In this document: in pieces, positions 13,214 to 15,955 of the stretch
How positions within the stretch are numbered: position 1 is the first letter of the stretch
Layout: every line of letters begins with the position of its first letter
From: Escherichia coli
Lineage (GTDB): Bacteria > Pseudomonadota > Gammaproteobacteria > Enterobacterales > Enterobacteriaceae
Reading direction: 5' to 3' (one strand)
Length of the DNA stretch: 38,099 nucleotides
Assembly (NCBI RefSeq): GCF_003334335.1
Contig: NZ_QOWQ01000042.1
Translations under genes and position numbers: made by a program
The notes under the pieces: model-generated
What the model was told of the DNA's origin: nothing
Database searches by the model: none
The model's input: the letters and a program-made list of their open reading frames with translations, nothing else

Positions 13214-13259
13214 TCGCTTTGTCAGCGACGTAGGACGAATGTCCATTGTGAAAAGAGCG
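13214..13259 (-). promoter_or_regulatory. nutR (boxA-like CGCTCTTTT and boxB hairpin TCGCTGACAAAGCGA)
   Basis: Minus-strand boxA-like at 13251-13259 and a 5-bp-stem/GACAA-loop hairpin at 13214-13228, between cro and cII. Confidence 0.5.
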
Positions 13260-13266
13260 GTGTTAC

Positions 13267-13467
13267 TTATGCAGTTGTTTTTTTGTTACTTGGGAAGGGC
13301 TTTATTTCTTCCGCATAAACGCTTCCATCAGCGTTTATAGTTAAAAAAATCTTTCGGCCTGCATGAATGGCCTTGTTAATCGCGCTTTGATATACGCCGA
13401 GATCTTTAGCCGTCTTGGTTTGCCCAAAGCGTATTGCATAATCTTTCAGGGTTATGCGTTGTTCCAT
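13267..13467 (-). CDS. cro: Cro repressor
   Basis: 66 aa; [54 protein letters not shown] is near-identical to lambda Cro as recalled. Confidence 0.95.
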
Positions 13468-13493
13468 ACAACCTCCTTAGTACATGCAACCAT

Positions 13494-13561
13494 TATCACC
13501 GCTAGAGGTAAAATAGTCAACACGCACGGTGTTAGATATTTATCCCTTGCGGTGATAGATT
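13494..13561. promoter_or_regulatory. OR1-OR2-OR3 operators with divergent pR and pRM
   Basis: OR1 tatcaccgctagaggta (13494-13510), OR2 caacacgcacggtgtta (13519-13535), OR3 tatcccttgcggtgata (13541-13557). pRM is leaderless onto the cI ATG at 13568. Confidence 0.85.
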
Positions 13562-13567
13562 TAACGT

Positions 13568-14281
13568 ATGAGCGCAAAAAAGAAACCATTAACACAAGAG
13601 CAGCTTGAGGACGCACGTCGCCTTAAAGCTATTTATGAAAAAAAGAAAAATGAACTTGGCTTATCCCAGGAATCTGTCGCAGACAAGATGGGGATGGGGC
13701 AGTCAGGTGTTGGTGCTTTATTTAATGGCATCAATGCATTAAATGCTTATAACGCAGCATTGCTTGCAAAAATTCTCAACGTTAGCGTTGAAGAATTTAG
13801 CCCTTCAATCGCCAGAGAAATCTACGAGATGTATGAAGCGGTTAGTATGCAGCCGTCACTTAGAAGTGAGTATGAGTACCCTGTTTTTTCTCATGTTCAG
13901 GCCGGGATGTTCTCGCCTGAGCTTAGAACCTTTACCAAAGGTGATGCGGAGAAATGGGTAAGCACAACTAAAAAAGCCAGTGATTCTGCATTCTGGCTTG
14001 AGGTTGAAGGTAATTCCATGACCGCGCCAACAGGATCCAAACCTAGTTTTCCTGACGGGATGTTAATTCTGGTTGACCCTGAGCAGGCTGTTGAGCCAGG
14101 TGATTTCTGCATAGCCAGACTTGGTGGTGATGAGTTTACCTTCAAGAAACTGATCAGGGATAGCGGACAGGTGTTTTTACAACCACTAAACCCGCAATAT
14201 CCAATGATCCCATGCAATGAGAGTTGTTCCGTTGTGGGGAAAGTTATCGCCAGCCAGTGGCCAGAAGAGACGTTTGGGTGA
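13568..14281 (+). CDS. cI: CI repressor (lambda immunity type)
   Basis: 237 aa; near-identical to lambda CI as recalled (a few substitutions). Confidence 0.95.
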
Positions 14282-14312
14282 TTGTTTTATTTTTCACGTA
14301 ATAGGATGATTT

Positions 14313-15074
14313 ATGACACAGTTTCAACTTGCATTAATCGCTAGAGAAGTTGATGGAGAAGTCATCCATCTTCGCACCAAAGACGGATACATCAATGCCA
14401 CCGCGATGTGCAAGTCTGCGGGGAAGCTACTTGCTGACTATACACGACTAAAAACAACACAAGATTTTTTTGATGAATTATCACGCGATATGGGGATTCC
14501 CATATCGGAGTTAATTCAATCATTTAAAGGCGGAAGAGCAGAGAATCAAGGGACTTGGGTTCATCCAGACATCGCAATTAATTTAGCTCAGTGGCTATCT
14601 CCAAAATTTGCAGTGCAAGTATCGAGATGGGTGCGTGAGTGGATGTCAGGTGAAAGAGCGCCTGCCGAACTCCCTATCCACCTTAAGCGGTATATGACAA
14701 ACCGAGGCAGAGTTCCTCATACGCACTTTTCTATGCTTAATGAACTGACGTTTAACTTGGTTGCGCCACTTGAACAGGCCGGATATACGCTGCCAGAAAA
14801 AATGGTCCCTGATATTTCAGAGGGTAGGGTTTTCTCGCAATGGCTCCGTGACAACCGGGGGGTTGAGCCGAAGACATTCCCAACATATAACCATGAGTAC
14901 CCAGATGGCCGGACATTCCCGGTACGTCTATACCCAAACGAATATCTTGCAGATTTCAAACAACACTTCAACGAAGTGTGGCTGCCTCAGTACGCTCCTA
15001 AATATTTTGCTGAACGAGACCAAAGGGCATTGACGTTGATTGAGAAAATCATGCTACCTGACCTTGATTCCTAA
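14313..15074 (+). CDS. KilA-N domain protein in the rexAB position
   Basis: N-terminal INATAMCKSAGKLLADY...GTWVHPDIAINLAQWLSPKFAVQVSRWV is a KilA-N/APSES-type signature. ~150-aa C-terminus unknown. AGGATG RBS. Co-oriented with cI and followed by a terminator. Confidence 0.6.
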   Translation: MTQFQLALIAREVDGEVIHLRTKDGYINATAMCKSAGKLLADYTRLKTTQDFFDELSRDMGIPISELIQSFKGGRAENQGTWVHPDIAINLAQWLSPKFAVQVSRWVREWMSGERAPAELPIHLKRYMTNRGRVPHTHFSMLNELTFNLVAPLEQAGYTLPEKMVPDISEGRVFSQWLRDNRGVEPKTFPTYNHEYPDGRTFPVRLYPNEYLADFKQHFNEVWLPQYAPKYFAERDQRALTLIEKIMLPDLDS

Positions 15075-15082
15075 ATGTTATT

Positions 15083-15108
15083 CCCGGCCACAGAGCCGGG
15101 TTTTCTTT
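15083..15108 (+). terminator. intrinsic terminator ending the cI / KilA-N transcript
   Basis: cccggc-cacaga-gccggg followed by TTTTCTTT, 9 nt after the stop. Confidence 0.55.
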
Positions 15109-15260
15109 GCCTCACCCCCCCACCTAAAGACACATAACCAAATGTATTTATTGAAAAATAAATAGATACAACTCACTAAACATCGCAATTCAGATCTCTC
15201 GATCACCTCCCAAGCCACTCAACCCTGCAAAAAATAAATCCATATAAAAAACATACAGAT

Positions 15261-15323
15261 AACCATCTGCGGTGATAAATTATCTCTGGCGGTGTTGACA
15301 TAAATACCACTGGCGGTGATACT
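15261..15323. promoter_or_regulatory. OL3-OL2-OL1 operators with pL (TTGACA / GATACT)
   Basis: aaccatctgcggtgata, tatctctggcggtgttg and taccactggcggtgata match lambda OL as recalled. Confidence 0.85.
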
Positions 15324-15391
15324 AAACACATCAGCAGGACGCACTACTCACCAGGGCGGTGAATATACAACGATTCAAATATGAATCTACG

Positions 15392-15406
15392 GCGCTGACA
15401 AAGCGC
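15392..15406 (+). promoter_or_regulatory. nutL boxB hairpin (P22-type GCGCUGACAAAGCGC)
   Basis: Perfect 5-bp stem with GACAA loop, ~65 nt downstream of the pL start. Same loop as the nutR hairpin. Confidence 0.55.
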
Positions 15407-15411
15407 AATAA

Positions 15412-15558
15412 CCAAAGTGAACTTTGGGGTGTGGTGAAGGGTTCATGGACGGGAATATGTCGCACGTAAAGCGGCGAGGCCTGCGGGACTATTGCCGAAT
15501 TGAAGTAGGCCGAAACAGGTCGAAATGGGTCTCCCACCTACCACACCACCAAAGTTCA
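15412..15558 (+). promoter_or_regulatory. long-range inverted repeat enclosing the N leader
   Basis: tgaactttggggtgtggtg (15418-15436) pairs with ccacaccaccaaagttca (15541-15558), ending 2 nt before the AGGAGG RBS of N. Pairing judged by eye. Confidence 0.35.
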
Positions 15559-15571
15559 TCAGGAGGTCTAT

Positions 15572-15955
15572 ATGACACGCAGAACTCAGTTCAAAGGCAA
15601 TTCACGTTCTCGTCGTCGTGAGCGTTTAAAGGCAAAGGCATTAGCTAACGGCGTGCTGGCCCGCGAAGAAGCAATAAGTTCAGAAGTATTACACCGCCCT
15701 ACTCTAAGCAGAGCGCAGATTCAGGCTAAAGGTACTCACGAAACGCCTGAGCGCATAGAAGACGCTAAGCCAATTAAGTTCATGGCACAGGACGTGATCT
15801 GGCAACAGAAAGAATACAGACGCAATCTGGAGCGAGCGGCCATTGTGTACGCGAATGAGTTTGGACATAAGCAACCAGAAACTGGTGTATGTCTTCCAAA
15901 CGTAGCCATTTACGCGGCAGGCTACCGGAAATCCAAACAACTGACGGCGAGGTGA
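15572..15955 (+). CDS. N-like antiterminator (P22 gp24-type)
   Basis: Arg-rich N-terminus (RRTQFKGNSRSRRRERLKAKALA); C-terminus NVAIYAAGYRKSKQLTAR resembles P22 gp24 (recalled). First gene after pL/nutL. Confidence 0.65.
   Translation: MTRRTQFKGNSRSRRRERLKAKALANGVLAREEAISSEVLHRPTLSRAQIQAKGTHETPERIEDAKPIKFMAQDVIWQQKEYRRNLERAAIVYANEFGHKQPETGVCLPNVAIYAAGYRKSKQLTAR

Follow-up and report, generated by a model that had tools for sequence, protein, structure and literature searches.

Lambda immunity, an HK97/H-19B-type N/nut module and a predicted BstA-family gene in the early control region of a lambdoid prophage

Results

The segment from 13214 to 15955 of the Escherichia coli DNA analysed here (38,099 nucleotides in all, referred to as the window) very probably constitutes the early control region of a 933W/Stx-phage-like lambdoid prophage and is built from three interchangeable and already known modules. 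The first is a lambda immunity module extending from the boxA of nutR to the boxA of nutL, the second an N antiterminator with nut sites of the HK97/H-19B type, and the third an accessory gene between cI and OL that would be expressed in the lysogen and is here of the BstA family instead of rexAB.

Over all its 2742 bases the segment shows 100% identity to a deposited phage, Escherichia phage PhiR5_2 (PV340546.1), and its resemblances to known phages are homologies of whole modules rather than chance matches of motifs. Collinearity with PhiR5_2 extends to approximately 24104 in the window, the PhiR5_2 record stopping at the integrase. That record annotates cI, Cro, cII and N and shows no difference from the window within the segment. 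In it the BstA-family gene is labelled a 'hypothetical protein', and an ORF of 41 aa, probably spurious, has been placed across OL. A text search of the literature for PhiR5_2 returned nothing relevant, PMC12315714 contains no mention of the phage, and no tRNA genes were found within the window. Identities between sequences, the limits of the modules, the hairpins and the frequencies of alleles were determined directly, whereas binding, antitermination, co-transcription and defence activity are inferred; the features are collected in Table 1.

Table 1. Features of the early control region, with positions in the window.
Feature	Coordinates	Strand	Evidence
cII-like activator gene (98 aa), HK97/H-19B-type	12832..13128	-	phrog_191 CII-like activator, E 1.9e-33; annotated cII in PhiR5_2
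Intrinsic terminator antisense to cII 3' end	12856..12883	+	11-pair stem, then T run
Putative CII-binding repeat at pRE (TTGC-N6-TTGT), TTGCTGTAACTTGT	13106..13119	+	Position of CII binding site annotated in mEp234
nutR boxB, TCGCTGACAAAGCGA	13214..13228	-	5-bp stem, GACAA loop; hairpin -5.6 kcal/mol
nutR spacer hairpin (GGAC-ATTC-GTCC)	13233..13244	-	Fold; conserved in H-19B, HK97, mEp234
nutR boxA, CGCTCTTTT	13251..13259	-	Position and sequence as annotated mEp234 boxA; lambda homology stops here
cro (66 aa)	13267..13467	-	64/66 (97.0%) identical to lambda Cro
pR promoter	13492..13520	-	TTGACT, 17-base spacer, GATAAT; found by scan
OR1, TATCACCGCTAGAGGTA	13494..13510	.	One difference from lambda: T at 13503
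OR2	13518..13534	.	Identical to lambda J02459
pRM	-35 TAGATA 13533-13538, -10 TAGATT 13556-13561		Positions after mEp234 annotation
OR3	13541..13557	.	Identical to lambda J02459; overlaps pRM
cI repressor (237 aa)	13568..14281	+	234/237 (98.7%) identical to lambda CI, 236/237 to HK97 CI
BstA-family gene (253 aa, N-terminal KilA-N) in lambda rexAB slot	14313..15074	+	phrog_6287 BstA, E 1.8e-82, residues 1-252
Intrinsic terminator ending predicted cI-bstA transcript (Timm equivalent)	15083..15108	+	Six G-C pairs, then TTTTCTTT
OL3 15261-15277, OL2 15281-15297, OL1 15305-15321	15261..15321	.	Each identical to lambda J02459
pL promoter	15295..15323	+	TTGACA, 17-base spacer, GATACT; found by scan
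nutL boxA-like element, CGCACTACT	15340..15348	+	As annotated mEp234 boxA; lambda homology stops approximately here
nutL spacer hairpin (GATTCA-AATA-TGAATC)	15372..15387	+	Fold; stem conserved in H-19B and HK97
nutL boxB, GCGCTGACAAAGCGC	15392..15406	+	Identical to P22 nutL boxB, H-19B, HK97, mEp234; hairpin -7.1 kcal/mol
N antiterminator (127 aa), HK97/H-19B type	15572..15955	+	98.4% identical to HK97 and mEp234 N; phrog_271, E 3.1e-39

The lambda immunity module

The initial annotation had described cI, cro and the operators as lambda's, with a canonical OL1 and one substitution in OR1, and alignment to the lambda and P22 references upheld every one of its sequence statements. Homology to lambda spans 13253 to approximately 15362, the accessory gene excepted, and includes tripartite OR and OL regions whose 17-bp lambda operators overlap pR, pRM and pL, five of the six, OL1 among them, being identical to those of lambda and OR1 being one base off. 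The cI product departs from lambda CI at three residues (T3A, K71N and R129K), its recognition helix QSGVGALFN being the same, and the ten-residue recognition helix of Cro is likewise unchanged; Ala3 is the majority allele of cI, present in 88/94 contigs.

In the mechanism we propose, CI would bind OR1-OR3 and OL1-OL3, repress pR and pL and autoregulate pRM, with Cro predicted to act in the converse manner. Functionally, lambda is homoimmune with HK97 and with the wild lambda-immunity phages. According to a paper title and to their immunity-region records, deposited phages with the same operators and CI bear the immunity specificity of lambda, and by analogy with these we would expect reciprocal superinfection immunity between the phage of the window and lambda.

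The OR1 allele

OR1 of the window (TATCACCGCTAGAGGTA) differs from that of lambda J02459 (TATCACCGCCAGAGGTA) solely in having T rather than C at 13503, which is position 8 of the non-consensus half-site and a G-to-A change on the pR strand; the canonical OR1 given in the initial annotation was right. It had further been suggested that this substitution might subtly retune the pR/pRM switch. Judged from its distribution, however, OR1 T is a common natural allele, neither a new mutation nor private to the locus: it is carried by HK97 and by 6/7 published wild lambda-immunity phages, mEp234 among them (7/8 counting HK97), by 76 of the 94 IMG/VR viral contigs with the operator region, and, in complete E. 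coli genomes, by 175 records versus 166 with C. A sequencing or assembly error, which has nothing in its favor except the single-base nature of the difference, is already refuted by the recurrence of T in independent sequences, namely those same phage isolates, viral contigs and complete-genome records, and its probability is practically nil.

In favor of a functionally significant retuning of pR/pRM specific to the hybrid, for example through weaker CI or Cro binding matched to the different N and cII, the variant base lies inside the 17-bp operator, A is never found at half-site position 8 in lambda's own twelve half-sites, and the N-terminal arm of cI also differs from lambda by T3A. In crystal structures the N-terminal arm of lambda cI contacts the operator centre. 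On the other hand, T is at least as common as C, and it is found together with N of the lambda, HK97 and P22-like types. Lambda's operators themselves vary at position 8 of the non-consensus half-site, with G, C or T there; in mEp332 both OL1 and OL2 show the same G-to-A change at the corresponding position; and the four combinations of OR1 T/C with cI Ala3/Thr3 are all present (75, 13, 5 and 1 contigs). The base moreover falls within the pR spacer, outside both hexamers. We consider such a retuning very unlikely, and favor the view of OR1 T as a widespread allele. A modest, quantitative change in CI or Cro binding at OR1 T is possible, and it would then be what is usual in wild phages of lambda immunity rather than a retuning particular to the locus. 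Because most of these phages carry OR1 T, the switch would be expected to work as it does in them, their immunity being that of lambda.

Two couplings of the allele were considered and rejected. One was to the HK97-type N module, OR1 T proving unlinked to N type (chi-square p = 0.69); the other was to cI Ala3, with the N-terminal arm co-varying with the operator centre, which is contradicted by the existence of all four haplotypes, and the linkage that is seen between OR1 and cI Ala3 is expected anyway for two sites 70 bases apart. In the pR mutant library of eLife 2017 (PMC5481185) the G-to-T change at residue 32 (G32T) is present and the G-to-A change (G32A) absent, and in PMC2194778 the operator substitution data appear as a redrawn figure only.

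That laboratory lambda, and not the locus in the window, is the outlier among lambda-immunity phages strikes us as unlikely. Among wild lambda-immunity phages, C in OR1 and Thr3 in cI are in the minority, and OR1, OL1 and OL2 all show the same G/A polymorphism at position 8 of the half-site. If A at position 8 measurably alters how far CI or Cro occupies the operators, typical wild phages of this immunity would not have the textbook parameters of the switch, and selection, for instance in competition between homoimmune phages, could then lie behind the recurrent polymorphism. OR1 and the cI N-terminal arm of reference lambda are not the commonest natural alleles, and caution is in order with 'mutations' called against lambda.

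N and the nut sites

The region had been described as a hybrid of lambda-type immunity with a P22-type N and boxB. The mosaic is real; the strict assignment of N to P22 could not be maintained. The protein has 97.6% identity to H-19B N and 100% to the N proteins of many Stx-converting phages, values comparable to that for HK97 (Table 1), versus only 42.9% identity to P22 gp24 over 91 aligned residues and 32.7% to lambda N. By these identities N is of the HK97/H-19B type and not strictly P22-type, P22 being a more distant relative. The ending of N (LPNVAIYAAGYRKSKQLTAR, its last 20 residues) does match P22 gp24 at 16/20 positions, and in this respect the earlier description of a gp24-like ending holds. 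A PDB sequence search with N gave a chance match alone (E 1.5), the solved boxB complexes escaping such a search because the N peptides in them are too short, and PADLOC matched neither N nor cII nor the ORF that follows N.

Both nut sites carry the P22-type boxB loop, as had been claimed: a pentaloop, GACAA, sits on a 5-bp stem rich in G-C. The nutL boxB is the 15-mer of P22 nutL, and the nutR boxB, which is identical in H-19B, HK97 and mEp234, shares the loop and inner stem of the P22 nutL-type boxB and has U-A as its outer pair. In nutL and nutR alike this boxB is combined with a hairpin-forming spacer between boxA and boxB, as is characteristic of HK97 and H-19B, and the whole nutL fold has a z-score of -3.68. 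The nutR of H-19B has two hairpins (PMC3526286).

The boxB identity at nutL, the C-terminal match to gp24 and a GNxxxRRxER core of the arginine-rich motif common to N and gp24 speak for a direct lambda x P22 recombinant, in which N and the nut sites would have been taken from a P22-like Salmonella phage. The low overall identity to gp24 argues against this, as does the 97.6-100% identity of N to that of the E. coli phages H-19B and HK97 and of Stx phages. The stem of the P22 nutR boxB (GCCGACAACGC core) is another one, and long hairpin-containing nut spacers are absent from P22. Furthermore, the C-terminal 22 residues are also found in the otherwise unrelated N of mEp213, HK629 and HK630, which makes the motif a sub-module shared by many N proteins rather than a mark of P22. 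We regard direct recombination with P22 as extremely improbable, and retain the HK97/H-19B assignment. On that assignment the arginine-rich N-terminus of N would bind the boxB hairpins, with their GACAA loops, in transcripts from pL and pR, and its C-terminus would engage RNA polymerase to give read-through of terminators. Antitermination in H-19B is reportedly independent of NusB and S10, that is, with a reduced host-factor requirement.

cII and neighboring elements

The cII product, noted earlier as diverged from lambda, is indeed just 27.7% identical to lambda cII. The terminator antisense to its 3' end may be the counterpart of the lambda oop terminator, going by position only.

A BstA-family accessory gene

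The product of 14313-15074 combines an N-terminal KilA-N domain (Pfam, E 2e-26, residues 13-112) with a C-terminal BstA domain (PADLOC BstA, E 2.5e-20, residues 120-237), and when it is aligned to the PHROG BstA profile of 304 positions (over 6-301), approximately 44 profile positions fall in gaps. As a member of the BstA family it would be predicted to block replication of phages that infect the lysogen. The gene comes immediately after the prophage repressor gene, as is typical of the BstA family, and starts 31 bases past the cI stop codon. A scan found no + strand terminator between cI and the gene, and the one terminator, which follows the gene, has the same position as the annotated Timm in wild lambda-immunity phages. 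In BTP1, bstA is transcribed from the repressor promoter (bioRxiv 10.1101/2020.07.13.199331), and from the arrangement in the window the gene is probably co-transcribed with cI from pRM.

No direct repeats of at least 6 bases were found in 14250-14420, around the start of bstA, and neither terminal direct repeats like those of BTP1 nor an anti-BstA (aba) element was recognised there. Because anti-BstA elements are specific to each BstA homolog (bioRxiv 10.1101/2020.07.13.199331), the absence of the BTP1 aba motif is uninformative. A BstA-family abortive-infection gene did not figure in the initial annotation.

Discussion

The combination of lambda cI, cro and operators with an N/nut module of HK97/H-19B type is real, but ordinary and already described. 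As a discovery it carries little weight: the sequence is deposited, mosaics of this type are known from the descriptions of HK97 and the wild lambda-immunity phages, and there is experimental work on the N-nut type in H-19B. The interval between cI and N is a known hot spot for accessory genes (PMC7067206), and a lambda-immunity prophage with a predicted BstA-family defence gene in the rexAB slot is one more case of defence cargo there.

Comparison with known systems

Lambda itself (J02459) has the same layout of pR, pRM and pL, but C at the variant position of OR1, Thr3 in cI, and N, nut sites and cII of other types. It carries rexA-rexB between cI and OL where the window has the BstA-family gene, and its OR1-OL1 distance is 2407 bp versus 1811 bp in the window.

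P22 is further removed: its nutR boxB has a different stem, its spacers are short and its c2-cro immunity is its own. Its gp24 shares with N the arginine-rich core and the C-terminal motif YAAGxRKSKQxTAR, but is 100 aa long versus 127 aa and lacks high overall identity. H-19B (AF034975) matches the window in the boxA, spacer hairpin and boxB of nutL except for one base, in the loop-closing pair of the spacer hairpin, and its nutR is one base off, in boxA; by contrast, its leader between nutL and N has diverged, and its cI, cro and operators are its own and not lambda's.

For the accessory gene the relevant system is BstA of the Salmonella prophage BTP1 (Owen et al.), in which KilA-N and BstA C-terminal domains are likewise joined in a gene directly downstream of the repressor, with a terminator after it.

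Apart from PhiR5_2, the same arrangement is that of HK97 (AF069529) and of mEp234 and HK106 (EF120460, EF120461; Degnan et al. 2007, Mol Microbiol 64:232), the latter two having GenBank records annotated operator by operator. All three carry, as in the window, lambda-type cI and cro, the six operators with T in OR1, N (98.4%), nutL and nutR, and an HK97-type cII, so that the combination of modules is not unusual. In the nutL spacer hairpin mEp234 differs at three positions (one of them in the stem as drawn), and cII of HK97 and mEp234 is just 69-72% identical to that of the window. Between cI and OL, HK97 has gp49 and gp48, mEp234 and HK106 have hicAB and one ORF, and the window has the BstA-family gene.

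Organization of the control region

The window contains a lambdoid early control region in which the + strand is lambda's leftward direction, and its features are collected in the table below.

Features of the lambdoid early control region (window coordinates)
Feature	Position	Strand	Basis
cII-like gene	12832-13128	-	
nutR boxB	13214-13228	-	
nutR boxA	13251-13259	-	
cro	13267-13467	-	
OR1, OR2, OR3	13494-13557		
cI	13568-14281	+	
253-aa ORF (BstA-family; rexAB slot)	14313-15074	+	
Terminator, Timm-like	15083-15108	+	consensus scan
OL3, OL2, OL1	15261-15321		
nutL boxA	15340-15348	+	
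nutL boxB	15392-15406	+	
N	15572-15955	+	

All comparisons with lambda were made against the J02459 record. CI (234/237 residues) and Cro (64/66) are nearly identical to their lambda counterparts, with recognition helices unchanged in both, and five operators, OL1 among them, are identical to lambda. The sixth, OR1, reads TATCACCGCTAGAGGTA against TATCACCGCCAGAGGTA in lambda, the sole difference being a T at 13503. The initial annotation, which matched cI, cro and the operators to lambda and pointed out the one OR1 substitution, is confirmed; the canonical OR1 that it gave was correct, as was its view of cII as diverged (27.7% identity to lambda cII).

The distance from OR1 to OL1 is 1811 bp in the window versus 2407 bp in lambda, and varies with the accessory gene content from 1638 to 2575 bp over natural lambda-immunity loci in IMG/VR. 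PhiR5_2, the phage matching this region, has a 41-aa "hypothetical protein" annotated at 15219-15344 (-), across OL2, OL1 and pL, which is probably a spurious gene call. Directly 3' of N lies a 238-aa ORF (15956-16672, +) belonging to phrog_2539, function unassigned, the middle part of which matches zinc-finger, endonuclease VII and HNH-like families weakly.

The OR1 allele in natural populations

The substitution in OR1 had been proposed to retune the pR/pRM switch subtly. The base difference is real, but it is not a peculiarity of this locus. Seven of eight wild lambda-immunity phages (HK97, mEp234, HK106, CL707, HK244, HK542 and mEp332) carry the T, and only HK544 has lambda's C. When IMG/VR was queried with the OR1-OR2 41-mer, allowing either base at the variant position, 94 contigs were recovered, of which 76 carry T and the other 18 carry C. 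Exact 41-mer matches in complete E. coli genomes numbered 175 records for T versus 166 for C; the latter include K-12-derived laboratory strains, J53 for one, which we presume hold lambda itself and so add to the C count.

The allele is independent of N type (chi-square p = 0.69): T occurs with 24 HK97-type, 13 lambda-type and 12 P22-like N, and C with 4, 4 and 2, respectively. The T3A change in the N-terminal arm of cI is likewise the majority allele (88/94 contigs), and all four OR1/cI-arm haplotypes occur (75, 13, 5 and 1 contigs). Wild lambda-immunity operators vary elsewhere too: in mEp332 (EF120456) the OR1 change, G to A on the pR strand, recurs at the equivalent half-site position 8 of both OL1 and OL2, and OL3 shows C to T; in CL707, OR3 shows T to C.

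The variant base occupies position 8 in the non-consensus half-site, where lambda's own operators have G, C or T, and it lies within the pR spacer, outside both hexamers. T at 13503 is a common natural allele, and the laboratory lambda reference, whose form is the rarer among phage isolates and viral contigs, is no more typical of the population than the window. The T may have a small quantitative effect, which would then be normal among wild phages with lambda immunity.

N and the nut sites

N had been described as P22-type. It is indeed not lambda-type (32.7% identity to lambda N), and 16 of its final 20 residues match P22 gp24, the P22 equivalent of N; overall identity to gp24, however, is 42.9%, compared with 98.4% to N of HK97 and mEp234, 97.6% to that of H-19B, and 100% to that of many Stx1a- and Stx2a-converting phages. 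The C-terminal motif was rejected as a P22 signature because the N proteins of mEp213, HK629 and HK630, unrelated in every other part, have these 22 C-terminal residues too.

The P22-type boxB loop noted in both nut sites is present: the nutL boxB (GCGCTGACAAAGCGC) is exactly that of P22 nutL, the nutR boxB (TCGCTGACAAAGCGA) has the same loop, and both are predicted to fold into a 5-bp stem with a GACAA pentaloop. The nutL of H-19B, comprising boxA, a GATTCA/TGAATC spacer hairpin and boxB, equals that of the window bar one base, in the pair that closes the spacer-hairpin loop, and its nutR shows a single mismatch, in boxA. In the work of Neely and Friedman (2000), the spacer stem-loop of the H-19B nut site reportedly draws boxA and boxB close to each other, and NusA, but neither NusB nor S10, is reported to be required by H-19B N. 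Two hairpins have been described in H-19B nutR (PMC3526286), with which the folds of the window nut sites agree.

Judged by these alignments, N is HK97/H-19B-type and not strictly P22-type. P22 gp24 belongs to this lineage at a greater distance; common to both are the C-terminus, the boxB loop and, within the arginine-rich motif, the GNxxxRRxER core.

A BstA-family gene in the rexAB slot

The slot that rexAB occupies in lambda is filled here by the 253-aa ORF. This ORF, overlooked in the initial annotation and a "hypothetical protein" in PhiR5_2, encodes a BstA-family protein. It matches phrog_6287 "BstA abortive infection system" over residues 1-252 (E 1.8e-82), PADLOC BstA in its C-terminal domain (E 2.5e-20) and Pfam KilA-N at residues 13-112 (E 2e-26). 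Many E. coli genomes and nine IMG/VR contigs have the same KilA-N gene beside a lambda-type cI.

In the window, the BstA-family gene begins 31 bases past the cI stop codon. A consensus scan returned pR and pL as the only two promoter-like sites, recovered the Timm-like terminator 3' of the gene and found no + strand terminator between it and cI, an arrangement in which pRM likely drives cI and this gene as one transcript in the lysogen. Co-transcription with the repressor has been reported for BTP1 bstA (PMC7067206). BstA stops replication of infecting phages, and the prophage protects itself through a short DNA element that overlaps the start of bstA and is specific to each homolog (bioRxiv 10.1101/2020.07.13.199331). 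BTP1-like terminal repeats were looked for at the window gene and none were found, which is uninformative given that specificity.

Source phage and surroundings

Over the 2742 bases from nutR boxB to the end of N, the sequence matches Escherichia phage PhiR5_2 (PV340546.1), a record with annotated cI, Cro, cII and N, at 100% identity, and prophages of four complete E. coli genomes at 99.8-99.9%. Among whole phages, phiSTEC1589-Stx1c and Shigella phage 75/02 Stx, both Stx-phage-like, come closest. The PhiR5_2 record ends at the integrase, at window ~24104; therefore the last 14 kb (~24104-38099) are presumably host chromosome, including the attachment junction. No tRNA genes are present in the window.

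Direct repeats of ~50-65 nt (12609-12671 and 12703-12761) lie between cII and an O-like replication gene, within an annotated 72-aa ORF, with a 92%-similar copy (11837-11922) inside the O-like gene and a 16-nt tandem pair, TTGGTGTGACTGCACA, at 12665-12696; a relationship to origin iterons is possible. Rfam matches at 7609-7807 (-) to C4 antisense RNA, isrK and c4 a1/b1 target elements suggest a P1/P7-like antisense-controlled antirepressor module in the prophage. The sRNA family STnc100 occurs in two copies, at 3290-3499 (-) and 3775-3968 (-), scoring 130 and 139 bits.

Relation to known immunity regions

Homology to lambda, accessory gene excepted, begins at 13253, inside nutR boxA, and ends at ~15362, level with nutL boxA or slightly beyond it, and this stretch is the classical exchangeable immunity module. 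The hybrid of lambda-type cI, cro and operators with a different N is real, but it has long been known. HK97, mEp234 and HK106 are 97.3-97.4% identical to the window over both the cI-cro-operator and the nut-N parts, the genes between cI and OL being their only difference from it. Two of these records, mEp234 and HK106, titled "immunity region" and with oR1-3, oL1-3, pR, pRM, pL, nutL, nutR and Timm annotated singly, fall within EF120455-EF120461, which we take to be the set of Degnan et al. The title and reference of that work are given in PMC7067206.
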